Below are positions 21,169-33,100 of a stretch of 35,029 nucleotides of DNA, one piece after another. Made by a program: the position numbers and the translations under genes. This DNA comes from a virus. Taxonomy: Duplodnaviria; Heunggongvirae; Uroviricota; Caudoviricetes. The stretch spans positions 1 through 35,029 of IMG/VR virus record IMGVR_UViG_2737471845_000031. The stretch is one strand, 5' to 3'. Each line of letters begins with the position of its first letter. The first letter of the stretch is position 1. The notes under the pieces are model-generated. The model worked only from the letters and a program-made list of their open reading frames with translations. It made no database searches and was not told the origin of the DNA.

Positions 21169-21886
21169 AGCTTGCCCCTCCCCATGAGAGATAACGCGGG
21201 GCCAGCGTGAACAGGATGCGCTGGGGATAATGACGGTTCTCCCGCCAGCTGGCAGCATTGCGTCCGGCATTCACCGTGGCGACATGTCCGAACCAGCGGG
21301 TACGGTCCAGCCCTTTCTGTGATGCAAGTTGCCTGTCCCGCTGTACCCAGCCCAGACCACCGTTATAGCCCGACAGTGTCATGGCCATACGCTCGCAGTC
21401 GTTGGCGGCGCTGACGCGCTGCCACAGCCAGCGGTCATAACTGACCAGCGCCCGGATAGCCCATGCCGGATTAAACGGCTCTCGACTGCTCAGCGCCGGC
21501 ATCAACTGGCTTATCCAGTCGGCAGTGGCAGGCATAAACTGCGCCAGTCCCTGAGCGCCAGCCGGCGAGATCGCATCAGGTCGCCAGCCGCTTTCCTGAT
21601 GCAGTTGCGCAGCGAAATCAGCCACCGGCGCAGACAGTCCCCATTCAAGCCGGGCATTACGGATCACATCATCGCGATACTGCAGCGCAGCCTGCGGAGG
21701 CTGCGCTGCGCGGGCCTGACTGAAGAAGCCGCCACACCAGAGCAGCCAGACAATCACCAGGTTGCCAGTAAGTTGCCACCAGAAGCTGTATTTATCGTTA
21801 CGTGGTTCTCCGTGTCTGATGGCGGTTACGCCCAGACCAAAGGCGAACAGAATAATGAGGGTGATTTGAGGCCAGTTCATGGTCAC
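21155..21886 (-). CDS. lytic transglycosylase endolysin with N-terminal membrane segments (SAR-like)
   Basis: 243-aa ORF with SLT-type motifs (HQESGWRP, GAQGLAQFMPATA) and two N-terminal hydrophobic segments. Start GTG 21886 overlapping the holin stop, or ATG 21880. Confidence 0.75.
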   Translation of the reverse strand: MTMNWPQITLIILFAFGLGVTAIRHGEPRNDKYSFWWQLTGNLVIVWLLWCGGFFSQARAAQPPQAALQYRDDVIRNARLEWGLSAPVADFAAQLHQESGWRPDAISPAGAQGLAQFMPATADWISQLMPALSSREPFNPAWAIRALVSYDRWLWQRVSAANDCERMAMTLSGYNGGLGWVQRDRQLASQKGLDRTRWFGHVATVNAGRNAASWRENRHYPQRILFTLAPRYLSWGGASCVGT

Positions 21887-22233
21887 AGTCCTGTTGCCAC
21901 AGCCAGACAGATCGCTGCAACAATCAGTGCACGGCGGATTAACGCAGCAGCAAACACAAGGTGAAGGCCGGTCTGCACAGGGAAACGCCCTTCAGCCATC
22001 AGCCTGTCGTCATGTTTCAGGTACTGACCGGGACGGGCTTTGGGGAAGAGCGAACGGTCAAGCCAGTAACCCAGCACTGCTGCCAGCGTGATGAGTGCCA
22101 GCTTGTAGATCACAACAGGCAACTGCTGTGGCGAGACCAGAGCGATGGTGCCCAGCAACAGCACTGAGGTCAGCAGCCAGCCGCTGAGGCGAGGTTTTTT
22201 AACAGGGGGAATGAATTTTTTCAGGCTTTTCAT
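21883..22233 (-). CDS. holin-like membrane protein
   Basis: ~116 aa from ATG 22233 (AAGGAG RBS); three predicted TM segments; first gene of the lysis cassette. The ORF-track start at 22266 is less likely. Confidence 0.55.
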   Translation of the reverse strand: MKSLKKFIPPVKKPRLSGWLLTSVLLLGTIALVSPQQLPVVIYKLALITLAAVLGYWLDRSLFPKARPGQYLKHDDRLMAEGRFPVQTGLHLVFAAALIRRALIVAAICLAVATGL

Positions 22234-22252
22234 GTGTGTCTCCTTGTCTGGT

Positions 22253-22291
22253 GGAGACAGCATCACAAATACAGGGCGCGAAGGATTTTAA
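22253..22291 (-). promoter_or_regulatory. candidate activator-dependent late promoter and leader upstream of lysis genes
   Basis: Minus-strand TTAAAATC, 23 nt, CTGTCTCC, then ACCAGACAAGGAGACACAC-ATG; CTGTCTCC can pair with GGAGACA that includes the SD. Poor -35. Confidence 0.45.
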
Positions 22292-22363
22292 AGCGCGTTA
22301 AGAGAGCCGGGGATACGGGGTGTGCAGGATAAACGATGAATTATTCACAGAGGAGAATACGAT

Positions 22364-23107
22364 ATGACGCACACACTGAATCCGGTCATCACTGTCACTG
22401 TGTCCGGTCCTGTGGGCAGCGGTAAAAGTTACGTACTGGCGCGGATAGAAGAGATGGTGAAACAGGAACTCGGAAACAGCGTCATTGTCGATGCTGCTGA
22501 CGTGGAGAATGAGCGCCGTATGAGTGGCGATGATCTGACGACCTGGCAGAAGCCACGGGCTGGCACAGTGATCAGGCTGGAGGAATACACGGGACAGGGC
22601 CTGTTGTCATACGGCGAGGAGCGTATCTGTCGGACGAATGAGCTGCTGGATGTTATATGCCCCACGGGCCGGCAACCCTGGATACTGCCCGATGCACTGC
22701 ATGCCACCATTGCGGCACTGATGACAGTTTACGATCAGGAGCTGCTCATGAAGGAGTTACGTAAACTCGCTGGTCAGCCAACAGAATGTTTTTCGGCCCC
22801 GAAGTACGGGAAGCAGGAACACATCCCGGTGAACACAATCCCCGTTAACCAGCCTCCCCGGTTCTTCGACGAATACATTCTGACACCGGAAAATAAAGCT
22901 GAGCATGAAGAGATCAAAGCGGCGTTGTTCCGGGAAATCAGGAAGATTGCTGAAATGCAGCTGGAGGGCGGGCTGGACAGAGTGATGGCGAGAGGAGAAT
23001 GGGAATCGCTGTTTGAAAAAGTTTCCCCGGAATTGCTTCCCCTCGCACTGGCTATCGGGATTATGCAGACAACGGATAAACCTCACTTACGTTCATTAAA
23101 CACGTAA
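22364..23107 (+). CDS. hypothetical P-loop (Walker A) protein
   Basis: 247-aa ORF, ATG 22364 with AGGAGA RBS; N-terminal VSGPVGSGKSYVL Walker A-like motif; no further recognisable domain. Divergent from the late operon. Confidence 0.5.
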   Translation: MTHTLNPVITVTVSGPVGSGKSYVLARIEEMVKQELGNSVIVDAADVENERRMSGDDLTTWQKPRAGTVIRLEEYTGQGLLSYGEERICRTNELLDVICPTGRQPWILPDALHATIAALMTVYDQELLMKELRKLAGQPTECFSAPKYGKQEHIPVNTIPVNQPPRFFDEYILTPENKAEHEEIKAALFREIRKIAEMQLEGGLDRVMARGEWESLFEKVSPELLPLALAIGIMQTTDKPHLRSLNT

Positions 23108-23487
23108 CGCATAATCCGGGATACGCATTCAGCGATGACTGCATTTTCACCGGTTTTTACTGCATCCAGAAGCGACTCTTTAAATGGCACGGGCCGGGGC
23201 TGCAGAAAGGTCGGCATGGCATTGAGCAGACAGAGCGTTTTTTCCGTGAGGACGACATCAGCCGCTCCCACAGCCAGCAACTGAGAGTAACGAATATAGC
23301 TGTTATCCCGAAGCCATATCAGCGTATCAATAAAATACCGGCACTTTTTCTGGTCGTGATCAACCTGGTCCGGGATATCGAAAAAACCAGAATAAATCAA
23401 AACCTGAGGTACCGGATGCGTGTTCAGTAATCGGCAGAATATTTTGCCGGTGAGTACATAAAAATCATCATTTAAGGAGTGCATCAT
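23083..23487 (-). CDS. hypothetical protein, paralog B of the 23951-24331 gene
   Basis: 134-aa ORF filling the gap between flanking plus-strand ORFs. Alignable blocks with paralog A (IFCRLLNTHP ~ IFGRLYESFP, FIDTLIWLRDNSY ~ FLDTVDWLKNSGY, VVLTEKTLCLLNA ~ AVLTAKGLEVLNA). Confidence 0.45.
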   Translation of the reverse strand: MMHSLNDDFYVLTGKIFCRLLNTHPVPQVLIYSGFFDIPDQVDHDQKKCRYFIDTLIWLRDNSYIRYSQLLAVGAADVVLTEKTLCLLNAMPTFLQPRPVPFKESLLDAVKTGENAVIAECVSRIMRYVFNERK

Positions 23488-23701
23488 GAATCCCCGATTA
23501 ACGTTAACAGAACATCAGCGCCGTGCTGAAGCAGTGAACAATGTTCTGGAAGATATTATCCGGTTACATCGCGGAGAACTGAGTATCTGTCGTGCCACTG
23601 TTCATTTTCAGGAAATACAAAAGCAGTTTGATACTTCTGTTTTTGCAGAAGGGCTCACTTACGCCCTGGACCAGATAAGGTCAGAAAATCACCCCGGATA
23701 A
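23486..23701 (+). CDS. hypothetical small protein
   Basis: 71-aa ORF with AAGGAG RBS 6 nt upstream; its start overlaps the divergent paralog B start (CATG). It may instead be non-coding leader. Confidence 0.35.
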   Translation: MNPRLTLTEHQRRAEAVNNVLEDIIRLHRGELSICRATVHFQEIQKQFDTSVFAEGLTYALDQIRSENHPG

Positions 23702-23757
23702 TCCCTAAACCGCATTAACAGAAATCCCACTATCCCTGCCGCATCATGAAAGAACGA

Positions 23758-23785
23758 CCAGCCCGGCACCCGAAAGCCGGGCTGG
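23758..23785 (-). terminator. GC-rich hairpin (candidate minus-strand terminator)
   Basis: Perfect 10-bp inverted repeat CCAGCCCGGC / GCCGGGCTGG with 8-nt loop; minus-strand downstream sequence is TCGTTCTTTCATG. Confidence 0.4.
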
Positions 23786-23890
23786 CCATCGTCCCACAGG
23801 AATGCACTGTGAGCCGACCGAGGTTCAGTCAGTCTCGTGAGACCAGACTAGCCTGCCATATTTTTAATAATTGTAAAATGTTTACAGATT

Positions 23891-23992
23891 ATGAAAACGC
23901 AGACATTACCCATCGTTCCATGGATTGGTGGCAAACGCTGCCTTGCGATATTACATAAGACCACGAGACATATATTGCAGACCTATTCCTAG
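23891..23992 (+). pseudogene. diverged 5' remnant of a second Dam methyltransferase gene
   Basis: Encodes MKTQTLPIVPWIGGKRCLAILHK..., matching the Dam N-terminus MKEQSLPIVPWIGGKRRLAKHILPQ; stops after 33 codons and runs into the 3' end of the paralog A gene. Preceded by a ~90-nt leader ~70% identical to the leader of the intact dam. Confidence 0.5.
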
Positions 23993-24331
23993 AGTCTGGC
24001 TAACCAGTGATCGCAACGCTTCTTTCCCTTCAATTTTTATAGAGTCAGATATTCTGGCCCCCAACGGTTTTTCCAGACTTCCAGGCGTAGCGTTTAATAC
24101 CTCAAGACCTTTAGCCGTTAGCACTGCGTTGTGGATCCCCCCAGAACTACGCGCCCCGATTAAATAGCCACTGTTTTTAAGCCAGTCTACGGTATCAAGA
24201 AAAAAAGTAAGTTCATTCTGTCTAACGATATCAACTGCCTTTATATCAATTTTGACGGGGAAAGATTCGTAGAGTCTCCCAAATATCTCACCAACTATTT
24301 CATTAAACCGCTCAATATTTTTTGGGGCCAT
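23951..24331 (-). CDS. hypothetical protein, paralog A (possible winged-helix protein)
   Basis: Likely ~126 aa from ATG 24331 (GGGAG upstream); the ORF-track start at 24415 would cover a hairpin. Contains an LT-x-KG-like segment (AVLTAKGLEVL). Divergent from dam. Confidence 0.5.
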   Translation of the reverse strand: MAPKNIERFNEIVGEIFGRLYESFPVKIDIKAVDIVRQNELTFFLDTVDWLKNSGYLIGARSSGGIHNAVLTAKGLEVLNATPGSLEKPLGARISDSIKIEGKEALRSLVSQTLGIGLQYMSRGLM

Positions 24332-24378
24332 GGTATTAGTAACTCCCTTTAATTGTCGCCCATGAAATATGCAAATAA

Positions 24379-24411
24379 CATGAAAAGAGCGACTCACCTT
24401 GTGCAGCGAAC
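24379..24411 (-). terminator. hairpin (candidate minus-strand terminator or insulator) between dam leader and paralog A
   Basis: 13-bp inverted repeat GACTCACCTTGTG / CACAAGGCGAGTC (one mismatch) with 7-nt loop; minus-strand downstream sequence GCTCTTTTCATGTTATTTGC. Confidence 0.4.
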
Positions 24412-24525
24412 ACAAGGCGAGTCATCAACTTACAGGTATGAGCTGTGAGTCAACCGAGGCTCTTCCGTTCTCGAGAACAAGGGAAGCCTATCGCATTTTC
24501 ATCTAATGAAAAAGGCTTACAGATA

Positions 24526-25290
24526 ATGAAAGAACAATCTTTACCCATCGTCCCCTGGATTGGGGGAAAACGTCGTCTGGCCAAACACATTCTGCCTCAG
24601 TTCCCACTCCATACCTGCTATGTGGAGCCATTCTGCGGCGCAGCAGCACTTTATTTTCTCAAGACTCCCAGCAAGATCGAAGTCATTAACGATATCAACG
24701 GTGAACTGGTAAATCTGTATCGGGTAGTAAAGCATCATCTGGAAGAATTTGTCCGCCAATTCAAATGGGCGCTGGTTAGCCGGCAGATCTACAAATGGCT
24801 GCAGATCACCCCGGAAGAAACACTGACGGATATCCAGCGTGCGGCACGGTTCTACTACCTCCAGAAGCAGGCGTTTGGGGGCAAGGTGGCAGAGCACAGC
24901 TTCGGCACCTCCACCACCTCCCCGCCACGCTTCAACCTGCTACGGATTGAAGAAGAACTGTCAGCGGCACACCTGCGGCTTTCCAGAACGGTGATAGAAC
25001 ACATGGACTGGCACCAGTGCATTAAGCGTTATGACCGTCCGCACACGCTGTTCTACTGTGATCCGCCCTATCTGGGGACGGAAGGCTATGGTGTGGATTT
25101 TCCTGAAGAGAACTACACACTACTCGCAGAACTGGCACGGTGCATCAGAGGAAAGATGATTATCTCGGTGAATGACATTCCGCAGATGCGTCGGGTGTTC
25201 ACTGAACTGAACATACAGACGGTGAATATCAACTACAGTCTGGCGGGGAAACCCACGCCACGCCGTGAACTGGTAATCTGCAACTTCTGA
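24526..25290 (+). CDS. dam: DNA N6-adenine methyltransferase (Dam family)
   Basis: 254 aa from ATG 24526; N-terminus LPIVPWIGGKRRL, FCGAAAL SAM-binding-type motif and catalytic DPPY, as in Dam-family N6-adenine methyltransferases. No adjacent restriction endonuclease gene. Confidence 0.85.
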   Translation: MKEQSLPIVPWIGGKRRLAKHILPQFPLHTCYVEPFCGAAALYFLKTPSKIEVINDINGELVNLYRVVKHHLEEFVRQFKWALVSRQIYKWLQITPEETLTDIQRAARFYYLQKQAFGGKVAEHSFGTSTTSPPRFNLLRIEEELSAAHLRLSRTVIEHMDWHQCIKRYDRPHTLFYCDPPYLGTEGYGVDFPEENYTLLAELARCIRGKMIISVNDIPQMRRVFTELNIQTVNINYSLAGKPTPRRELVICNF

Positions 25291-25319
25291 ACAAAACCGG
25301 AAAGCACAATGCTTTCCGG
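25291..25319 (-). terminator. intrinsic terminator between convergent dam and repressor genes
   Basis: Perfect 10-bp stem CCGGAAAGCA / TGCTTTCCGG with 3-nt loop, followed on the minus strand by TTTTGT; sits right after the dam stop. Confidence 0.55.
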
Positions 25320-25405
25320 TAAACCAAACAACTTCCACTATGTCACTGGCGATGTTTTCTGAAAGCATCCAGATCAACCACGCGCCCTTTGTGTCCAGGT
25401 CAAAA

Positions 25406-25744
25406 TCAGCCTGCGAGTTTGCTTGGTTTGGGTTGAATGAAGACTTTGCCGACCTCAAGAATTGCCCTCCGTTGTTCGGGGCTCATTTCGTCGAATGCAT
25501 CCATTAACTCTTTCTTTTCTTGTGACACATAAGGTGCAACAACAGGCTGACTCCGCACCCCAGTAACTACATACAAAATATCTACACCGATTTCTGATAG
25601 TGCAGATAACTGCACTGCAGTAGGAGAAGTGCGATCTTTTTCCCAATCAATGAAAGTTCTCTTTGCCACACCTATAGCATCAGCCAACCCTTGCTGTGTA
25701 AGAGATAGACGCTCTCTTTCTTCTTTAATACGTAACCCGATCAT
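25406..25744 (-). CDS. XRE-family HTH lysogeny repressor
   Basis: Likely 113 aa from ATG 25744; HTH region LSLTQQGLADAIGVAKRTFIDWEKDRTSP. Divergent from the early operon, as for Mu c/ner. The ORF-track start 25897 would overlap the early gene by 53 nt. Confidence 0.75.
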   Translation of the reverse strand: MIGLRIKEERERLSLTQQGLADAIGVAKRTFIDWEKDRTSPTAVQLSALSEIGVDILYVVTGVRSQPVVAPYVSQEKKELMDAFDEMSPEQRRAILEVGKVFIQPKPSKLAG

Positions 25745-25768
25745 GTGAGTTTTTCTGCACTCTTTAAG

Positions 25769-25797
25769 TTGACTGGTGAGATAATCTGCACCATAAT
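25769..25797 (+). promoter_or_regulatory. early promoter (sigma70-like) with candidate operator repeats
   Basis: TTGACT (25769-25774), 17-nt spacer, CATAAT (25792-25797), ~47 nt upstream of the first early gene. TCTGCAC occurs twice (25754, 25785) and ATAATCT twice. Confidence 0.55.
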
Positions 25798-25844
25798 CTA
25801 TCACACATAAGGCAAACATCATTGCATCAACAAAGGAGACAACG

Positions 25845-26033
25845 ATGACTGCAGAACAAGTCAAAGCTCTCTTCCGCCAGCGCGGGATCACTTTCACCCG
25901 CTGGGCAGAAGAAAACGGCTACAACCGCAATGAGGTATACCGCGTTCTCAATGGGCAGACCAAAGCCCGTTACGGTAAATCCCATGAAATCGCCGTGAAG
26001 TTGGGGCTGAAATCAACAGCTCAGGCAGCCTGA
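25845..26033 (+). CDS. Cro/Ner-like small DNA-binding regulator
   Basis: 62-aa ORF, AAGGAG RBS 6 nt upstream, first gene of the early operon divergent from the repressor; helical basic protein. Confidence 0.55.
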   Translation: MTAEQVKALFRQRGITFTRWAEENGYNRNEVYRVLNGQTKARYGKSHEIAVKLGLKSTAQAA

Positions 26034-26085
26034 AGATTTTGAGTCTTTGTAAAAGGTTATCACATATCGCAAAAGAGGTATGCAG

Positions 26086-26394
26086 ATGAGTAAGACGAAT
26101 GTTTCAAGCTCCGGCAGTCGCATCCTCCGGGTACTCAAAGCGCTGCGCGGTCATGCCCTGAACGGTATTTCCAACGGTGAACTGGCGGCAGCACTGCACG
26201 AGTCACTGGCAAACATCAACCGGGCACTCAACACCCTCATTGAAGAAGGGTTGGCCCTGAAACTGGAAAACGGGCGTTTCGCGCCGGGCATCCAGTTACT
26301 GCAGATCGCTATGGCCCACAGTAACGAGATGGCACGTGCACAGGATCGCATTAACGAAATCAACCAACGTGTCATTTCAGGTAGTCGTTTGTAA
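26086..26394 (+). CDS. winged-helix DNA-binding protein
   Basis: ~102 aa from ATG 26086; HTH-like segment ISNGELAAALHESLANINRALNTLIEEGLA. Confidence 0.45.
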   Translation: MSKTNVSSSGSRILRVLKALRGHALNGISNGELAAALHESLANINRALNTLIEEGLALKLENGRFAPGIQLLQIAMAHSNEMARAQDRINEINQRVISGSRL

Positions 26395-26404
26395 GGAGTA
26401 ATAA

Positions 26405-27316
26405 ATGGGACGCACCAAATCACCGATTAACACTGAACTGAACGCCGAGGTACCGCTGTCGGATGATCTCAATGTCAGTCTGAACGCCATGACACAGCAT
26501 CGCATGGAGATCATGCAGCAGTTTGGCGATGGTCAGCCCTATGAGCGTGATCGCATAGTTCATGAGGCTCGGTTTTATATGGCACAGAGCGCTGAGGCCA
26601 TGCTGGAAGCAGGTAAACGACTTATTATTCTCAAAGAAAATGAACCACACGGGGACTTTGTTGGAATTGTAGAAGAACAACTTGGTCTGCATGTGCGCGC
26701 AGCACAACGAATGATGAAAGCATCTTTGAAATACCTTTCACCAAAACTAGAGCCAAAAGCGACAACGTTGTCGCTTTTAGGTAAGGCAAAATTATTTGAA
26801 CTTGTTGCTGAAGATGACGACGACCTTGCTGAACTGGCCGACGGCGGCACAGTCGCAGGACTGACGCTTGACGATGTTGATCGCATGTCAGTACGTGAAT
26901 TGCGTCAGGCCCTGCGCGAAGCGCGCGAAACCAACGCAGCACAACAGCGCGTACTCGCCGACAAAAATGAAAAAATAGACTCACTCTCCACCAGACTGGA
27001 GAAGAAATCCCGTATTCAGCCGCCTGAGCCTGATGAGGAGGTTAAGAAGCTGCGGGCGGAAGTGACAGCATTAGCGGTTGAGGCGGAATCTGCCATCGCC
27101 GTTCGACTGTCCAGCGCTTTTGAGACACTGTGCGCATATTGTGCTGAAAACATGATTGATACCCCCAGAGACTTCATGGCAGGCCTGGTCTGTCAACTGG
27201 AAAGCACAGCGCGTAGCCTGCGCTCCACATTTGACCTGCCGGACGAGCCAACAGGCGATGTCGCGCCTTCATGGCTGACTGAGCCGACGCCACAGATTAA
27301 CGGGCTGGAGGCATAA
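26405..27316 (+). CDS. hypothetical early protein with acidic and coiled-coil regions
   Basis: 303-aa ORF, AAGGAG RBS 6 nt upstream; located just before the transposase gene. Confidence 0.5.
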   Translation: MGRTKSPINTELNAEVPLSDDLNVSLNAMTQHRMEIMQQFGDGQPYERDRIVHEARFYMAQSAEAMLEAGKRLIILKENEPHGDFVGIVEEQLGLHVRAAQRMMKASLKYLSPKLEPKATTLSLLGKAKLFELVAEDDDDLAELADGGTVAGLTLDDVDRMSVRELRQALREARETNAAQQRVLADKNEKIDSLSTRLEKKSRIQPPEPDEEVKKLRAEVTALAVEAESAIAVRLSSAFETLCAYCAENMIDTPRDFMAGLVCQLESTARSLRSTFDLPDEPTGDVAPSWLTEPTPQINGLEA

Positions 27317-27319
27317 CCA

Positions 27320-29089
27320 ATGAATGCTGCCCTGACTGAACGACTGGTTTATGTCGCCCGCGCGGCACGTGACGCGGGGCATGGTAAACGCGGTGCAGTA
27401 TACGACGCTGCCTGTGCTGAACTTGGCATGTCCCGCGCCACTCTGCTGCGCAGGCTGAAGGAGGTCTCTGTGACTGATAAACGCAAAAAACGCGCCGATG
27501 CCGGGCGCAGCGCCCTGACCCGCGACGAAGCCGCGCTGATATCTGCCACACTGCGTGAGGCCACCCGCAAGAACGGTAAGCGTCTCTATTCCATCGCAGA
27601 TGCAGTGGAAACCCTGCGGGCTAACGGCTTTATCACCGCAGGCAGAACAGATGAAACCACCGGTGAGTTTTTCCCGTTGTCTGAAGATGCCATCAGCCGT
27701 GCCCTGCGTAACTATGGCCTGCACCCGGAACAACTGGATGCCCCTGCACCACATACCGAAGTGGCCAGTCTGCATCCCAATCATGTCTGGCAGATTGACG
27801 CCTCACTCTGCACGCTTTACTACCTGAGCAATGGACATAAAGGGCTGCAGGTGATGGACAGCGCGAAGTTCTACAAGAACAAGCCCGCTAACCTTGCCCG
27901 TATCGCCAGTGACCGCGTGTGGAGTTACGAGATTACCGACCATGCCAGCGGCTGGATTTACGTTGAGTATGTGACGGGGGCGGAATCCGGTGAGAACCTG
28001 TGTTCTGTGCTTATCAACGCCATGCAGGAGCGTGGCGGCGCAGACGTGCTGCACGGCGTGCCGAAAATACTCTATCTCGACCCCGGCTCGGCAAACACCG
28101 CGGGTATGACGAAAAACATGTGTCGCTCACTGGGCATCGACCTGATAGCGCACAAGCCGCATAACGCCCGCGCCACCGGACAGGTGGAAAAGGCGCGTGA
28201 CATTATCGAACGCAAGCTGGAGCCGGGTCTGAAGTTCCGGCCGGTTCACAGTCTGGAAGAACTCAACGCGCTGGCCGCGAAATGGCGCAGCCACTTTAAC
28301 GCCACGGCTGTTCACAGCCGCCACGGTAAAACCCGCACGGATATCTGGCTGAAGATTACTGCTGAGCAGCTGAAAAAAGCGCCTTCCGTTGAGGTATGCC
28401 GTGAACTGGCTGTGGCGGCACCAGAACTCCGCAAAGTCACGCCAAAACTTCGTGTCTCGTTCCGGGGCACTGAATTTGACGTATCAACGGTACCGGGCGT
28501 ACTGGTCGGTGAAAAACTGATGATTACCCGTAACCCGTGGCGCAGCGATGTGGCACAGGTGGTTCTGACCGGTGAGGACGGCCACGAGACGTTCTTCCTG
28601 GTCGAAGAGGTCAGAAAGAACGAGTTTGGCTTTGCTGAAGGCGCGGCGGTATTTGGCGAAAGTTACAAAGCCCTGCCGGAAACACCGGCACAGACGGCGG
28701 CAAAAGAAACCGAAGCGCTGGTCACCGGTACAGACAACGCCGCAGATGCAGCTGCCGCACGCAAGGCGAAGGCGCTGCCGTTCGGCGGGCGGCTTGACCC
28801 GTATAAACATATTGATGACGCCACACTTCCGGCCTATATGCCGAAGCGAGGTCAGGCCTCTGACGTACGCGGACCGCGCACTGAACAGCGTCCCATGACT
28901 CATGTGGAGGCCGCGAAAGCCCTGCGCGGGAAGTTCAGCGCCAACGGCCTTACCTGGACGCCGGAACATTACCGCCAGTTAACGGCACAGTACCCGGACG
29001 GCGTACCGGAAGCTGCACTGGATGAAGTCATGGCCACGCTGACCACGCCGGCCCGCAGCAGCGTTATCAGCATTGTTAACGGCAACTAA
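27320..29089 (+). CDS. phage DDE transposase (rve-type catalytic core)
   Basis: 589-aa ORF with candidate catalytic D (HVWQIDASL), D (LYLDPGSAN) and E (ATGQVEKA), the last pair ~36 residues apart (D,D-35-E); N-terminus unlike MuA. Confidence 0.85.
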   Translation: MNAALTERLVYVARAARDAGHGKRGAVYDAACAELGMSRATLLRRLKEVSVTDKRKKRADAGRSALTRDEAALISATLREATRKNGKRLYSIADAVETLRANGFITAGRTDETTGEFFPLSEDAISRALRNYGLHPEQLDAPAPHTEVASLHPNHVWQIDASLCTLYYLSNGHKGLQVMDSAKFYKNKPANLARIASDRVWSYEITDHASGWIYVEYVTGAESGENLCSVLINAMQERGGADVLHGVPKILYLDPGSANTAGMTKNMCRSLGIDLIAHKPHNARATGQVEKARDIIERKLEPGLKFRPVHSLEELNALAAKWRSHFNATAVHSRHGKTRTDIWLKITAEQLKKAPSVEVCRELAVAAPELRKVTPKLRVSFRGTEFDVSTVPGVLVGEKLMITRNPWRSDVAQVVLTGEDGHETFFLVEEVRKNEFGFAEGAAVFGESYKALPETPAQTAAKETEALVTGTDNAADAAAARKAKALPFGGRLDPYKHIDDATLPAYMPKRGQASDVRGPRTEQRPMTHVEAAKALRGKFSANGLTWTPEHYRQLTAQYPDGVPEAALDEVMATLTTPARSSVISIVNGN

Positions 29090-29100
29090 GGAGGGAAACA

Positions 29101-30266
29101 TGCTGGTACTGAAGCAGCAACTGAAAGAGGCCCGTATTCCACAGGCGGTGGTGGCGAGAGCTGTCGATGTTTCTGAGGCCACGCTGGCCCAGATTGTGAA
29201 TCATAACGCGTGGCCCCGCACCAGCCCCGGAGAAGTGCGCCGGCGTCTTGCGTCCTGGCTGGAAAGTCAGGGGATTGATACAGCGAAGAGTTTTGATGCT
29301 GTACAGGGCGCGGCCACGCCCCGTACAGCGGGTACCACAGATAAAACGAGCCTCAGTGAGGAAGAGAATATGTTACTCAAAAAACAGGTGTTATTTCCAG
29401 CAACCAAAAAAGCGTTTGGTCTTTTCCGTGACCCGTTCGCCGACGAAGCCATGCAGGGTTCTGATGATGTGTTCACCACCCCGGACATTCGCTACGTGCG
29501 TGAGGCGCTGTACCAGACAGCCCGTCATGGCGGGTTTATGGCTGTCATCGGTGAGTCCGGTGCGGGTAAATCCACGCTGCGCCGTGACCTGACTGAACGT
29601 ATCAACCGCGAGAATGCGCCGGTAATTATTATCGAGCCATACGTCATCGCCATGGAAGACAACGATGTGAAAGGGAAAACCCTGAAGGCAGCAGCGATTG
29701 CCGAAGCCATTATCAGTACCATCGCACCACTGGAAAGCATCAGACGCAGTCAGGACGCCCGCTTTCGCCAGCTGCATCGCGTCCTGAAAGACAGCCGCCA
29801 GGCGGGGTTCAGCCACGTTCTGGTGATTGAGGAAGCCCACAGTCTGCCCGTTCCGACACTGAAACACCTCAAACGCTTTTTTGAGCTGGAGTCCGGTTTC
29901 AAAAAACTGCTGTCCATCGTGCTGATTGGCCAGCCGGAACTGGCGACAAAACTGTCTGAACGCAATATGGAAGTCCGTGAAGTCGTTCAGCGCTGTGAGG
30001 TGGTCGAACTTCTGCCTCTCGACAATAACCTTGAAGAGTTTCTGACGTTCAAACTGCAACGGGCCGGTAAACAACTGACGGACATTATGGACGCCGGCGC
30101 AGTGGATGCCATACGTGCCCGCCTGAGCAATCCGGGAAGTCATCGTAAAAACAGGGTCAGCCTGCTGTATCCGCTGGCCGTCAGTAACCTGGTGATAGCC
30201 GCCATGAATCTGGCCGCTGAAATCGGGGTTCCACAGGTCAACGCTGACGTTGTCAAAGGGGTTTAA
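29101..30266 (+). CDS. transposition ATPase (AAA+ target-DNA activator, MuB/TnpB-like role)
   Basis: ~388 aa from ATG 29101 (GGAGGG RBS); N-terminal HTH-like region, Walker A GESGAGKST, Walker B HVLVIEEAH; directly downstream of the transposase. Confidence 0.8.
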
Positions 30267-30268
30267 TA

Positions 30269-30538
30269 ATGAAATCCATCACAGGTATCAACCAGCAAAT
30301 CAGCAAAGTGCAGTCAGCCATTATGGCGCTTATGGCAACGAACACGGATGTACAAAGCATCACCATCAGGGGCAATAAACCTGTCATCCGCGTTTCCCGG
30401 AGTGCGCATTGCATGCGCATGCTTGAACAGGGGAAAGCCAGTTATCTGTATACCGGTCATGACCACAGGGGACATTTCCGTCAGGGCGTTTTCGAACTGC
30501 ACGGCTGTCGCGTCGTGTGGCCGGAATCTTTGTGGTAA
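30269..30538 (+). CDS. hypothetical protein
   Basis: 89-aa ORF with AAGGGG RBS, between the ATPase and gam. Confidence 0.4.
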   Translation: MKSITGINQQISKVQSAIMALMATNTDVQSITIRGNKPVIRVSRSAHCMRMLEQGKASYLYTGHDHRGHFRQGVFELHGCRVVWPESLW

Positions 30539-30565
30539 TCAGCACAACCGGAGAAATCATAAAAT

Positions 30566-31096
30566 ATGGCAAAAAGTACAAAAGGGGCAAAACGTATCAA
30601 GTCCGCAGCGGCACTCTGGGTACCGGGGACACGCGAAGAGGTCATTGAGGGCATCAGACTGCTCGGTGACGCACAACGTGAACTGGTCAGGGCTGAAACA
30701 GAAATGAATGACGCCATTGGCGATATCACCGCACGTTATGCCCCGCTCACCGAGAGCCTGAAAAAACGCATGTCAGAACTGCAGTCCGGTATCCAGACAT
30801 GGTGTGAGGCACACCGTGATGAACTGACCGGCAACGGGAAGGTGAAGTTCGCTAACCTCACCACCGGCGAGGTGCAATGGCGAAACCGTCCGCCATCAGT
30901 CAGTATCCGTGGAGCGGATAATGTTATTGAACTACTGAGACGTCTGGGGCTTGAGCGCTTTATTCGTGTAAAAGAGGAAATAAATAAAGATGCCATTCTG
31001 AATGAAAAAGAGGCCGTGAAAAATATTCCCGGCATTACCATAAAAAGTGATATTGAGGATTTTTCAATAATTCCTTTTGAGCAGGATGTGCAGTAA
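30566..31096 (+). CDS. gam: host-nuclease inhibitor Gam (Mu Gam family)
   Basis: 176-aa ORF closely resembling Mu Gam along its length (KRIKSAA..., PPSVSIRG..., GLERFIR..., IEDFSIIPFEQ). Confidence 0.85.
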   Translation: MAKSTKGAKRIKSAAALWVPGTREEVIEGIRLLGDAQRELVRAETEMNDAIGDITARYAPLTESLKKRMSELQSGIQTWCEAHRDELTGNGKVKFANLTTGEVQWRNRPPSVSIRGADNVIELLRRLGLERFIRVKEEINKDAILNEKEAVKNIPGITIKSDIEDFSIIPFEQDVQ

Positions 31097-31193
31097 ACAC
31101 ACCACGTTAATTATTTAATAAAAACATTTTCTTTTTTATTCCGGCGTCAGCGCCGTGGGCTTCTGCACGCCGGAAACAGAGGAGAATTAAATT

Positions 31194-31388
31194 ATGATAT
31201 TTAAATGTATTCAGTGCGAGAGGGATATAACAGCCCTGCGTTTTCACAGCGCCATCGCCGTGATGTCCGGTAAATACCACGTACCTGCAGTACGCGTCAC
31301 CCTGGTCTGTCCGTACTGCAGTCAGCATTTTTCGGCAGATGTGCCCGTTATGGAATTCTCCCGCCCTGACAGGGAGGAAGCGCAATGA
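31194..31388 (+). CDS. small zinc-ribbon protein
   Basis: 64-aa ORF with GAGGAG RBS and two Cys pairs (CIQC ... CPYC). Confidence 0.4.
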   Translation: MIFKCIQCERDITALRFHSAIAVMSGKYHVPAVRVTLVCPYCSQHFSADVPVMEFSRPDREEAQ

Positions 31389-31657
31389 TTACCCCACAGG
31401 AAGCACATCAGCGCACCCGCGCCCTTGTTGAACGGTATCTCAACGAGTGTGAATGCCGTGACCTCACCGATATCATGTGCGCCCTGACGGCGTTAATCAG
31501 CATGGCCACGCAGGCCATTGTGGCGACTAACGGAAAGGAGGCCGCCCTGCAGATACTAGTGAACACACTCACCCACGCGGCAGAGCACGAGGTGCCGTAC
31601 CGGATGGAAATCACTGCAGAAGGCGACCTGCACATCATTGTTGACCGGAAGCACTGA
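31385..31657 (+). CDS. hypothetical protein
   Basis: 90-aa ORF translationally coupled to the upstream gene. Confidence 0.4.
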   Translation: MITPQEAHQRTRALVERYLNECECRDLTDIMCALTALISMATQAIVATNGKEAALQILVNTLTHAAEHEVPYRMEITAEGDLHIIVDRKH

Positions 31658-31666
31658 GGGCGCGGC

Positions 31667-31963
31667 ATGACACGGAACACCATACTCACCCGCACCGCCC
31701 TCTACCGTCTGGCCCTGCAGCGTTTCGGGCCGGACGCACAGGCCCTGAAACTGACAGAAGAGGCCGCTGAACTGGCGGCCAGTGCTGCCCGCAATCTGAA
31801 CGGACAGGGCAGCGAAAGCGACCTCGCGGCAGAGCTGGCAGACGTGGAAATCATGACAGAGCAATTGCGCCTTCAGGGGATGGACCGGCTGATTGACTTC
31901 CACAAACAGAAAAAACTGGAACGTCTGGCTGCACGACTGGGCGTGATTTACACGAACGAGTAA
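31667..31963 (+). CDS. MazG-like nucleotide pyrophosphohydrolase domain protein
   Basis: 98-aa all-helical ORF with MazG-type pattern LKLTEEAAEL ... ELADVEIMTEQL ... K..LERL. Confidence 0.5.
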   Translation: MTRNTILTRTALYRLALQRFGPDAQALKLTEEAAELAASAARNLNGQGSESDLAAELADVEIMTEQLRLQGMDRLIDFHKQKKLERLAARLGVIYTNE

Positions 31964-31977
31964 CCGGGAGGCATTCA

Positions 31978-32193
31978 ATGGCTGACATACTCAGGGAAAT
32001 CACCGCATGGATACTGATTCTTACTGGCCTGGCGACATGCCTCAGTGCGGGGGCAGCCCTGGCTGCCCTGCTGATGCACATAACAACACAGTGGTTATGG
32101 GAAAAGCTTAAAGCAGCATACAGCCTGAAAGAGCTGTCCGACGCTGTCCGGGCATGGAAACGGCAGAAAAATACCGGAGATACAGAACAATGA
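31978..32193 (+). CDS. small membrane protein
   Basis: 71-aa ORF with one TM segment (AWILILTGLATCLSAGAALAALL). Confidence 0.35.
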   Translation: MADILREITAWILILTGLATCLSAGAALAALLMHITTQWLWEKLKAAYSLKELSDAVRAWKRQKNTGDTEQ

Positions 32194-32873
32194 CAGACCA
32201 GAATAAACACATTGAGAAACTGAAAAAGTTGCTGGCGCTGGCCGCATCCGGCAACCCGCACGAGGCCGCTCTGGCACTGCGCCGAGCCCGTAAACTGATG
32301 GATGTTCACGGCATCACACATTCCGACATTGCTATGAGTGATATTGATGAAACCATCAGTCATTACTGGCCGACAGGCAGTCTCCGTCCACCGCGCTACA
32401 TGCTGGGCCTGATGAACATCATCCGCGAGGCATTTGGTGTTAACTCCATCATTCACCCCGGCACGCATCCGTCTGTGGGGTTCTACGGTAACCGGGAACG
32501 AGCGGCACTGGCTGCGTACACCTGGGAAGTGCTGGTCCGCCAGCTGAAAAAGGCGCGTCAGCAGTATATCAGCGCACAGAACAAAAGAATAAAAAACGCC
32601 ACCCGTACCAGCCGTGGAGACCAGTTTGCTGAAGGCTGGGTACTGGCCGTTATCAGTAAAATACAGTCCTTTGCCCTGACCGATGATGAGCGTGAACTGA
32701 TGCAACAGTGGCTGGAACATAAATACCCGCAAACGCAAACCACCAGGGCGCGTCAACCGGGAAGAAGCCGCAATGGCGACGCCTCGCGCTATGCGGGGTT
32801 TCGTGAAGGGCAGAACGTCAGACTGCACCGCCCGGTCAGTGGGCAGGAACAACAGAAACTGGAGGCCAGATGA
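32190..32873 (+). CDS. conserved phage protein (DUF2786-like N-terminal motif)
   Basis: ~227 aa from ATG 32190 (GGAGA RBS); N-terminal IEKLKKLLALAASGNPHEAALALRRARKLM motif typical of this prophage family. Confidence 0.5.
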   Translation: MTDQNKHIEKLKKLLALAASGNPHEAALALRRARKLMDVHGITHSDIAMSDIDETISHYWPTGSLRPPRYMLGLMNIIREAFGVNSIIHPGTHPSVGFYGNRERAALAAYTWEVLVRQLKKARQQYISAQNKRIKNATRTSRGDQFAEGWVLAVISKIQSFALTDDERELMQQWLEHKYPQTQTTRARQPGRSRNGDASRYAGFREGQNVRLHRPVSGQEQQKLEAR

Positions 32874-33100
32874 TTACGCTATCAGGTAACAGCCGGAAAT
32901 TAAAAGCCTGCCGAATATCTGCCAGATACCTTTTTGCCCGCGCCTTTTTTAAGAACGTCAGGCCGGGGATCACAATTGGTGTTATTGCCGGACGCGAACA
33001 GGTTGAAAAATACATGTCAGGTGCATGGTGGAATAACGACCCTGTCATTGCTGCCCGTAATATTCATATCAGTTGGGGGGATATTCAGAATGACTGCTGA
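32870..33100 (+). CDS. hypothetical protein
   Basis: 76-aa ORF coupled to the upstream gene; weak support. Confidence 0.3.
   Translation: MITLSGNSRKLKACRISARYLFARAFFKNVRPGITIGVIAGREQVEKYMSGAWWNNDPVIAARNIHISWGDIQNDC

Follow-up and report, generated by a model that had tools for sequence, protein, structure and literature searches.

A candidate accessory-gene hotspot between the lysis operon and the repressor of a BcepMu-like Escherichia coli prophage

The window analyzed here, a stretch of 35,029 nucleotides (IMG/VR record IMGVR_UViG_2737471845_000031), is in its whole length a nearly complete BcepMu-like (Bcepmuvirus-type) transposable prophage of Escherichia coli. Late genes run leftward, the first encoding a Holin_2-3 holin (21883-22233) and the next an SLT endolysin; early genes run rightward, a ner-like gene (25845) being followed by an IclR-type helix-turn-helix (HTH) gene, a DUF3102 gene and the gene for a 589-amino acid (aa) DDE transposase. 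Genes in both orientations lie between the holin and the Cro/CI-type immunity repressor (Table 1). A P-loop protein, a 71-aa protein and a Dam-family methyltransferase (dam) are encoded on the + strand, two winged-helix proteins of 134 and 126 aa (wH134 and wH126) on the - strand, and a 5' remnant of a second dam completes the set. All six open reading frames (ORFs) that an earlier note on this DNA had listed for the island exist, and the RefSeq annotation of identical E. coli genomes contains these genes as well. The locus is best explained as an accessory-gene hotspot of the prophage between lysis operon and repressor, assembled by recombination from separable modules. We hold this reading with slightly better than even confidence, the estimate covering the whole of it, i.e. 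the hotspot, its cassettes and the working model proposed below.

Table 1. Features of the holin-to-repressor interval (positions in the window; +, rightward; -, leftward;., no strand assigned)
Feature	Position	Strand	Evidence or remark
Divergent intergenic region, holin (-) / P-loop gene (+)	22234..22363	.	ORF map
247-aa soluble acidic P-loop protein, isoelectric point 5.2, phrog_3787	22364..23107	+	Walker A GPVGSGKS, VIVDAAD stretch
Cassette 1, 860-bp insertion/deletion unit	22830..23689	.	BLAST breakpoints
wH134, 134-aa winged-helix protein, phrog_2266	23083..23487	-	3' end overlaps P-loop gene by 25 nt
71-aa helical protein, phrog_4490	23486..23701	+	E 5e-50
dam leader copy 1, orphaned by cassette 2	23748..23890	+	P1 23754-23792; dyad CACAG-N7-CTGTGAGCCGACC 23795-23819
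5' remnant of resident dam, first 19 codons	23891..23947	+	Repeat D1, three-way alignment
Cassette 2 unique core, wH126 gene and upstream region	23947..24431 (approx.)	.	BLAST breakpoints, repeat spacing
wH126, 126-aa winged-helix paralogue, phrog_2266	23951..24331	-	AAGGGAG ribosome-binding site
dam leader copy 2, before intact dam	24382..24525	+	Helices P0-P4, alternative P5
P1 of leader copy 2, 15-bp stem then CTCTTTTCAT	24390..24424	-	Terminator-like, pointing away from dam
Orphan D12-class N6-adenine DNA methyltransferase (dam), 254 aa	24526..25290 (or from GTG at 24445)	+	PF02086
Hairpin between convergent dam and repressor genes	25296..25320	.	Terminator-like on - (TTTGTT follows); would end repressor transcript
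Cro/CI-type HTH immunity repressor	25406..25864	-	Start overlaps ner-like gene 25845-26033 (+)

The holin-to-repressor interval had been suspected of being variable and mosaic, and comparison across related prophages bears this out. At least seven architectures occur at the interval in E. coli prophages alone. In other genera, 43 loci show ner and holin spaced 1.3 to 5.3 kb apart, and crude clustering of their ORFs yields numerous unrelated cargo families. Alternative cargo found at the same site in E. coli consists of a 193-aa and a 328-aa gene, of DUF2441, of an NA37 nucleoid-associated protein with a 401-aa partner, or of dam alone. The guanine plus cytosine (GC) content of the window is 43-47% across 23001-24500, vs. 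55-63% in the flanks.

Two cassettes could be delimited. Cassette 1 comprises codons ~156-247 of the P-loop gene, the wH134 gene and the 71-aa gene, and is missing in three related loci (L125, L093 and L092), which encode a P-loop protein of 158 aa. Cassette 2, the inserted unit of which measures 635 bp as judged from the spacing of the repeats, has at its right side a second dam leader and a second set of the first dam codons; it is missing in the prophages of ABU 83972 and ST131 and in phage PhiKM, and resides in loci L125 to L128. All four combinations of presence and absence are found in nature: both cassettes are missing in L093, only cassette 1 is found in ABU 83972, ST131 and PhiKM, only cassette 2 in L125 to L128, and both in this window. 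The cassettes are thus present or absent as units, independently of each other, and low in GC content, as expected of morons. These natural combinations, and the independent presence of the cassettes, make the locus experimentally testable, as do the near-backbone dam with its structured upstream region and the portability of the winged-helix genes.

The remnant of a second dam, recognized in the earlier note, is genuine. Together with its leader it is ~97% identical to the dam allele of the ABU 83972/ST131 prophages, which lack cassette 2, and it is 72% identical to the 5' end of the intact dam, located 635 bp downstream (repeat D1). The intact dam matches the ABU 83972/ST131 allele at 75-77% identity over the first 120 nt, and synonymous divergence (dS) between the two is ~0.5 overall. 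Since the remnant corresponds to the resident allele and the intact dam is diverged, a donor segment reaching from wH126 to a dam 5' region replaced part of the resident dam. As read from the alignments, cassette 2 demonstrably landed in the resident gene at codon 19, leaving the leader and 19 codons behind and bringing in a replacement dam 5' region. The crossover was illegitimate on the left, at dam codon 19, and homologous on the right, within dam.

The intact gene encodes a D12-class methyltransferase, as predicted. PF02086 is matched at E 1.5e-27 (97 bits vs. a cutoff of 22; residues 38-261 of the long ORF) and the PADLOC MTase_II model at E 9e-113, while NCBIfam TIGR00571 ("dam" subfamily) scores 112.8 bits vs. 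a cutoff of 114.85. The catalytic motif DPPY (in FYCDPPYLG) and the FxGxG-type motif binding S-adenosylmethionine, in the variant form FCGAA (EPFCGAAALYF), can be read in the translation. The enzyme had also been called an orphan, and indeed no nuclease or restriction domain was found by Pfam, NCBIfam and PADLOC in neighboring ORFs, the same being true of all related architectures examined. It is ~25% identical to E. coli Dam and DpnM, has its closest phage relatives in Burkholderia, Halomonas and Acinetobacter phages, and is under strong purifying selection (ratio of nonsynonymous to synonymous substitution, dN/dS, ~0.07). Because dam is carried by 27 of the 43 loci from other genera, and by 81 of 86 contigs with the leader motif described below, it is close to a backbone gene, rather than cargo, among enterobacterial members.

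A prophage of the same type resides at ~1.00-1.04 Mb in E. coli EC958 (ST131), and has been published as Phi2, with tail-fibre inversion sites at 1,005,540-1,007,607 (PMC4134206). Its methylase M.EcoMIV is orthologous to the window dam (94% aa identity, same prophage type and position), an assignment based on the prophage location, the D12 class, and the fact that M.EcoMIV is the sole annotated methylase in the part of the prophage examined. In the EC958 lysogen M.EcoMIV is transcribed significantly less than the host dam, and its methylation motif could not be assigned (PMC4659465).

GATC sites are depleted in the window (94 vs. ~135-163 expected). A stretch of 6,089 bp spanning the DUF3102 gene, the transposase gene and downstream genes (26879-32968) is GATC-free, the longest gap in 300 Markov simulations being 2,635 bp, and Phi2 of EC958 shows this gap as well. 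Among related loci, 13 have 0-1 GATC in the transposase gene, and 12 of these possess the phage dam; of the 27 loci with at least 4 GATC there, 13 possess it.

The earlier note had each unit of the island bracketed by strong hairpins. Three strong hairpins do exist, at 23754-23792 (-26 kcal/mol, z -4.9), 24390-24424 (-26 kcal/mol, z -6.3) and 25296-25320 (-17.6 kcal/mol, z -6.9), but the other gene junctions are devoid of any. None was found at the P-loop/134-aa junction, where the genes overlap, at the 134-aa/71-aa junction, where the start codons overlap by 2 nt, or between holin and P-loop gene, a region with no significant structure (z -0.3) and no sigma-70 consensus match. This holin/P-loop region is the presumed site of back-to-back promoters, and ~67 bp at its holin side are conserved in locus L129.

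A conserved element of ~150 nt precedes the intact dam and the remnant alike; the first stem (P1) of each of these copies is one of the two strongest hairpins. Copy 1 is ~97% identical to the leader of the ABU 83972/ST131 dam. Helices of copy 2 include, besides P1, P0 (GAGC/GCTC), P2 (TACAG/CTGTG), P3 (CTTCCGTTC..GAAC..GGAAG) and P4 (TTTTCAT/ATGAAAA and GCCT/AGGC), and the ribosome-binding region lies under an alternative helix, P5 (CTGTGAGTC/GGCTTACAG). The 170 nt preceding dam were taken from all loci, and the leader is conserved in every dam-bearing locus examined; stem sequences are wholly different between lineages, complementarity being kept. Covariation was measured on a MAFFT alignment of 31 sequences, the hand-drawn structure P0-P4 being tested against slid partners and 500 shuffles. 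Paired cells are 84% (35-44% with slid partners), two-sided pair changes are 20 (6-11 with slid partners), and none of the 500 shuffles reaches the observed values. The core motif CACAG-N7-CTGTGAGYCRACC was detected in 86 IMG/VR contigs, with dam starting 51-85 nt downstream in 81; in 43 of the 86 the holin is divergently upstream of the leader and dam directly beside the holin. Four IMG/VR contigs (L138, L148, L187 and L202) have the core motif with no dam within 200 nt downstream; a distant transposase-like match near the motif in L187 may mean an insertion. The dyad CACAG-N7-CTGTG was also considered as a shared late-promoter or activator site, and dismissed, being found only in the two dam leaders of the window and not upstream of the holin.

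The folding strand was judged by the asymmetry of G-U and A-C pairs in 97 distinct leader sequences. P1 pairs at 95% on the strand opposite dam, with 149 G-U pairs, and at 86% on the dam sense strand, with 37. The figures for P2 are 95% and 58 G-U pairs on the opposite strand, 87% and 2 on the sense strand. The reverse is true of P5 (CUGUGAGYC/GGCUUACRG), which pairs at 78% with 2 G-U pairs on the opposite strand, and at 99% with 185 on the sense strand. The excess of G-U pairs argues that P1 folds on the strand opposite dam. There P1 is followed by a U-rich tail (GYTCTTTY) conserved in the 97-sequence consensus, and a GC-rich stem-loop with a U-rich tract, as found in intrinsic terminators, is present on the - strand both at 24424 to 24390 and at 25320 to 25296. 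All five terminator-like sites of 22000-26200 are on the - strand, and the same scan revealed none on the + strand. P1 is, in our reading of the sequence, a terminator for leftward transcription. A discrete antisense small RNA issuing from the leader was considered too; the 97-sequence consensus holds no convincing sigma-70 promoter for it, and for this reason P1 is described as a leftward terminator and not as a defined antisense RNA. In the sense RNA, P4 and P5 pair in nearly all sequences with AAAGGCUUACAG, just 5' of the AUG. The sense leader may hence hide the dam ribosome-binding site, a proposal on weaker evidence than the P1 terminator because P5 exhibits no double compensatory changes.

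Rfam covariance models gave no match at E <= 1 on either strand of 22000-26200. No description of a hotspot of this kind was found in the literature on BcepMu-like transposable phages, and papers on BcepMu-like E. coli prophages, on DUF2513 and on the EC958 locus tags yielded no functional work on these genes beyond methylome papers. As far as these literature and Rfam searches show, both the cassette logic and the conserved leader/terminator element are undescribed.

The non-methylase proteins had been said to lack an assignable family. This holds for Pfam, NCBIfam and PADLOC, but all of them fall in PHROG families, of unknown function. The 134- and 126-aa proteins are, as supposed, paralogues (28% identity, E 4e-12). 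They feature a three-helix bundle and a beta-hairpin wing, i.e. a winged-helix fold, plus two extra C-terminal helices. The structure search that the earlier note had recommended was carried out with a wH134 model, for which Foldseek found nothing at E < 0.05 in PDB and BFVD. Neither paralogue matches Pfam, DUF2513/YjcQ included, at E <= 10, and neither does a Serratia relative labelled DUF2513 by one source. The family spans Enterobacterales and Pseudomonas, with conserved columns. wH126 sits between two - strand P1 hairpins with U-rich tails, and its orthologues in Photorhabdus (57% identity) adjoin dam; in five of six BcepMu-type architectures the winged-helix genes are divergent from the dam-containing unit. 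In other Mu-like prophages relatives stand alone as inserts, in one case inside the head genes and antisense to them, in another ahead of the tape-measure gene; elsewhere they adjoin cargo, namely DUF2441 in Limnobaculum and a 767-aa protein in Pseudomonas tohonis. In the Limnobaculum parvum chromosome (L098, 5001-6058) the DUF2441 gene is immediately preceded by the phrog_2266 relative, in an island that is not a prophage and is close to a type VI secretion locus; the E. coli/Klebsiella hotspot, too, has DUF2441 among its alternative cargo (L004, L094). In a prophage remnant of Pseudomonas sp. GM74 (L101, 4430-5453) a 67-aa ORF stands between two tandem relatives, one truncated to 96 aa (hidden Markov model, HMM, E 1e-15) and one complete at 150 aa, so pairs of such paralogues are not confined to E. 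coli.

The 71-aa gene always accompanies wH134-type genes. Serratia prophages have intact orthologues of both, wH134 at 53% identity, and the 71-aa protein as a 73-aa protein at 33-36%. In prophages of Serratia and of the ABU 83972/ST131 type the dam leader follows the 71-aa gene immediately, and 9 IMG/VR contigs likewise have this gene on the upstream side of the leader. The start codons at 23486-23488 (+, 71-aa gene) and 23485-23487 (-, wH134) overlap, and Serratia keeps the head-to-head packing with a 1-nt gap. As the starts overlap, the promoter and 5' untranslated region of each gene must lie inside the coding sequence of the other, and this packing would give mutually antisense 5' ends. 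Small ORFs found by winged-helix genes in Pseudomonas and Stutzerimonas were examined as possible homologues of the 71-aa gene, and are not homologous.

The Walker A motif of the 247-aa protein, GxxxxGK[ST], is at residues 15-22; G15, G20 and K21 are invariant in the family, whereas some members (e.g. P0065, P0089, P0090) have N in place of S22. Pfam matches are all under the family cutoffs, and profile searches of PDB relate only the strand, P-loop and helix element to known NTPases. Full-length relatives are few. An exhaustive search resolved the family into a fixed Walker-A N-domain of 75 residues and shuffled C-terminal modules, only the first ~75 residues being shared. In the 247-aa protein this N-domain, which also holds the VIVDAAD stretch, precedes a mosaic middle part and C-terminus. 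A natural variant of 182 aa lacks residues 53-124. The 158-aa variant (P0015) ends in EHTPDNP, and the TPDNP tail corresponds to an out-of-frame translation of the 71-aa gene's 3' end; this match suggests that the short form probably arose from the long one by deletion at a CAC..CCGG microhomology. In BcepMu-type phages the P-loop gene always divergently abuts the holin, and only the E. coli type has P-loop and winged-helix genes together. A winged-helix gene seen by eye beside a P-loop relative in the viral contig L115 gained no support from the family HMM. Relatives of the N-domain reside in five HK97-like IMG/VR contigs (L112, L113, L117, L123 and L124) just upstream of HNH, TerS and TerL genes, so the family recurs at the start of late/packaging operons in unrelated phage types.

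The stretch 22000-26000 is 100% identical to prophages of E. coli M-17 and three further strains, and related loci are found in 636 of 5,426 complete E. coli genomes. The nearest isolated phage is PhiKM, classified in Bcepmuvirus. About one eighth of complete E. coli genomes thus harbor this prophage type; among the carriers are the pandemic clade C of ST131 and ABU 83972, a therapeutic strain. ST131 prophages have a different repressor of 118 aa, of another immunity type, next to the same island. The start of the window repressor is ambiguous, the longest ORF (25406-25897, -) encoding 163 aa and the RefSeq form 152 aa; both add a hydrophobic N-terminal extension before the HTH domain, and overlap the ner-like start at 25845.

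In the prophage of E. coli HN68 (L095, 4242-6457) the cargo at this hotspot lies directly downstream of the repressor, on the repressor strand, and encodes an NA37-family protein (E 1e-80) and a 401-aa protein with a weak PADLOC match to KwaA (E 8e-5); loci of Mixta, Pectobacterium and Brenneria contain the pair too (clusters C19 and C20). In two more E. coli loci (L092, 1679-3337; L094, 1400-4003) a 328-aa protein and a 193- or 203-aa protein are encoded immediately downstream of the repressor on its strand, and have no Pfam or PADLOC matches. Placed as rexAB in lambda, this pair is a better candidate for lysogen-expressed cargo than the window genes. The E. coli 328-aa protein is unrelated to the 328-aa neighbor of the P. 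tohonis winged-helix gene, with which kinship had been considered. In the crude ORF clustering, a cluster with a longest member of 324 aa, which may or may not be the same family as the E. coli protein, is present in 15 loci of other species.

The working model is as follows. The + strand genes for the P-loop protein, the 71-aa protein and dam would form one rightward unit, back-to-back with the late promoter and expressed mainly in lytic growth, and the methylase would modify replicating phage DNA, either protecting it from restriction or marking it. The leader would restrain dam translation, P5/P4 in the sense RNA pairing with the ribosome-binding region; on the opposite strand P1 and its U-rich tail would act as an intrinsic terminator. 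Since repressor and lysis operon share the - strand, leftward transcription must stop before the holin, and P1 and the hairpin following the repressor gene might stop transcription of repressor and winged-helix genes ahead of the lysis genes. The winged-helix genes would be leftward single-gene morons, insulated by terminators, for small nucleic-acid-binding proteins, which most likely regulate either the rightward dam unit beside them or the DNA of related phages entering the cell; of all the island genes, only these two look like classic self-contained morons. The low transcription of dam in the EC958 lysogen fits lytic-phase expression.

Several observations tell against this model. Transcription of the proposed + strand unit must cross two antisense genes, and sigma-70-like promoters were found for no unit, either in the scan of the window or in the 97-sequence consensus, so that the operon structure is deduced from strand, spacing and terminators. 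Evidence on dam expression comes from one RT-PCR in one strain under one condition, and the methylase would duplicate the host Dam if its target were GATC. In the leader, outer P3 pairs poorly in the alignments (24-61%), and support for P5, consisting of two variable positions with transition-type (wobble-compatible) changes and one invariant G-U, is suggestive. The winged-helix fold is generic and no operator was identified; in Photorhabdus the winged-helix gene is convergent with dam, not divergent. Finally, the AlphaFold prediction recommended for the 247-aa protein was made, drawing on 13 close homologues, and gave an unusable model (pLDDT 40).

The earlier note had favored lysogen-expressed functions, and one may suppose that the island genes protect the host from other phages or from restriction as one or more new defence systems, with dam as modification partner. 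The hotspot adjoins the immunity region and varies, the island is low in GC content, each winged-helix gene forms an insulated unit by itself on the strand of the repressor, and alternative cargo of other E. coli prophages is directly downstream of the repressor on that same strand; moreover, winged-helix relatives lie beside large proteins of unknown function in P. tohonis and beside DUF2441, an alternative cargo of this hotspot, in Limnobaculum. Searches, however, do not support this: PADLOC-DB 2.0 holds no match for the 134-, 71- and 126-aa proteins, the P-loop protein hits PADLOC models only at E >= 0.015 through its Walker A stretch alone, and no nuclease, membrane or effector-type domain was found, all island proteins being predicted soluble with no membrane segment. 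Tested against known defence systems, the island did not prove to be a member of any. Its components assort independently, the P-loop gene being found without winged-helix and 71-aa genes in L092, L093, L022, L024 and L030, and a winged-helix gene without the P-loop N-domain in Serratia (L005-L007), which argues against a single system; P-loop relatives elsewhere are just upstream of HNH and terminase genes, and expression of the dam orthologue in the EC958 lysogen is low (PMC4659465). The strand of dam, 71-aa and P-loop genes, opposite the repressor, and the lack of + strand terminators look more like a lytic-cycle unit, and a defence role is considered unlikely. Less probable by far is that the region consists of decaying recombination leftovers, functionless except for dam. 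The truncated dam copy, the duplicated leader and the 158-aa P-loop form, which resembles a deletion product, would suit decay, as would the fact that E. coli copies of wH134 and the 71-aa gene have too few substitutions for selection to be measured. Yet all ORFs are intact in hundreds of genomes, dN/dS of the P-loop gene is 0.2-0.3, wH134 and the 71-aa gene are kept intact in Serratia, the winged-helix family retains conserved columns across Enterobacterales and Pseudomonas, and compact gene overlaps are preserved across genera.

Alternatively, the locus might be a dedicated, regulated DNA-modification module resembling com-mom of phage Mu, in which winged-helix and/or 71-aa regulators unlock dam via the leader and the P-loop protein is accessory. 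A structured leader pairing with the ribosome-binding region is in line with this, as are the 71-aa gene immediately upstream of the leader in type-B and Serratia prophages, and the winged-helix genes adjoining dam, or one small gene off, in every BcepMu-type locus having them. Mu Com works through a cysteine-based zinc-binding site, but the 71-aa protein has a single cysteine and no Pfam match, and cannot form such a site. Most dam-bearing loci have the leader and no winged-helix, 71-aa or P-loop gene, and the 43 of 86 contigs with dam directly beside the holin indicate that dam does not require any of them; winged-helix relatives are also found in phages lacking dam. A module of this kind seems improbable, about as much as the defence role. 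Somewhat less doubtful, and still put forward tentatively, is the idea that the ~150-nt element is an undescribed two-strand riboregulator, the winged-helix and mini-P-loop proteins being new factors in phage-phage or phage-host conflict. The sense strand may give a translation-inhibiting leader with P2 and P5 as alternative helices, the opposite strand a structured RNA ending in terminator P1, and the two RNAs together may set when an orphan methyltransferase is expressed across a widespread family of Mu-like prophages. If true, the leader would represent a new family of RNAs linked to DNA modification in phages; otherwise the hotspot is an ordinary, though well-mapped, cargo site of a prophage.

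One of the closest known systems is the M.EcoMIV prophage, from which the window differs in its diverged dam allele (dS ~0.5), the extra wH126 cassette and the dam remnant; the M.EcoMIV paper (PMC4659465) deals with the methylase, not with neighboring genes or leader. The winged-helix paralogues differ from YjcQ/DUF2513- and MarR/Rrf2/IclR-type proteins, lacking a Pfam match and having two additional C-terminal helices. Moron or accessory hotspots of prophages are exemplified by lambda rexAB and sieB beside cI, and by the defence hotspots of P2 and P4. As in these, the site is fixed, with the holin on one side and repressor/ner on the other, and the cargo varies, is often low in GC content and in part carries its own terminators. 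Unlike these, the island has no cargo matching any known defence system, it belongs to a transposable phage of BcepMu-like type, and half of its genes, methylase included, are on the strand opposite the repressor and apparently lytic. BcepMu itself (AY539836) has three hypothetical genes, gp18-gp20, at the corresponding place, flanked by gp17, the Cro/CI-type repressor, and gp21, the holin; all three are on the late strand, none is homologous to island proteins of the window, and no dam is found there (tblastn). The com-mom operon of Mu comprises a DNA-modification gene switched on late, the 5' leader of which can fold over the translation start, and a small ORF directly upstream. The window shares with it a structured leader before a DNA-modification gene in a Mu-type phage, a gene for which late switching-on is likewise expected. 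This resemblance is loose: the window enzyme is an ordinary D12 methyltransferase and not Mom, the leader has no sequence in common with mom, a zinc-finger Com homologue is missing, most loci lack a small ORF upstream of the leader, and the first leader stem, P1, appears to act on the opposite strand, as a terminator.

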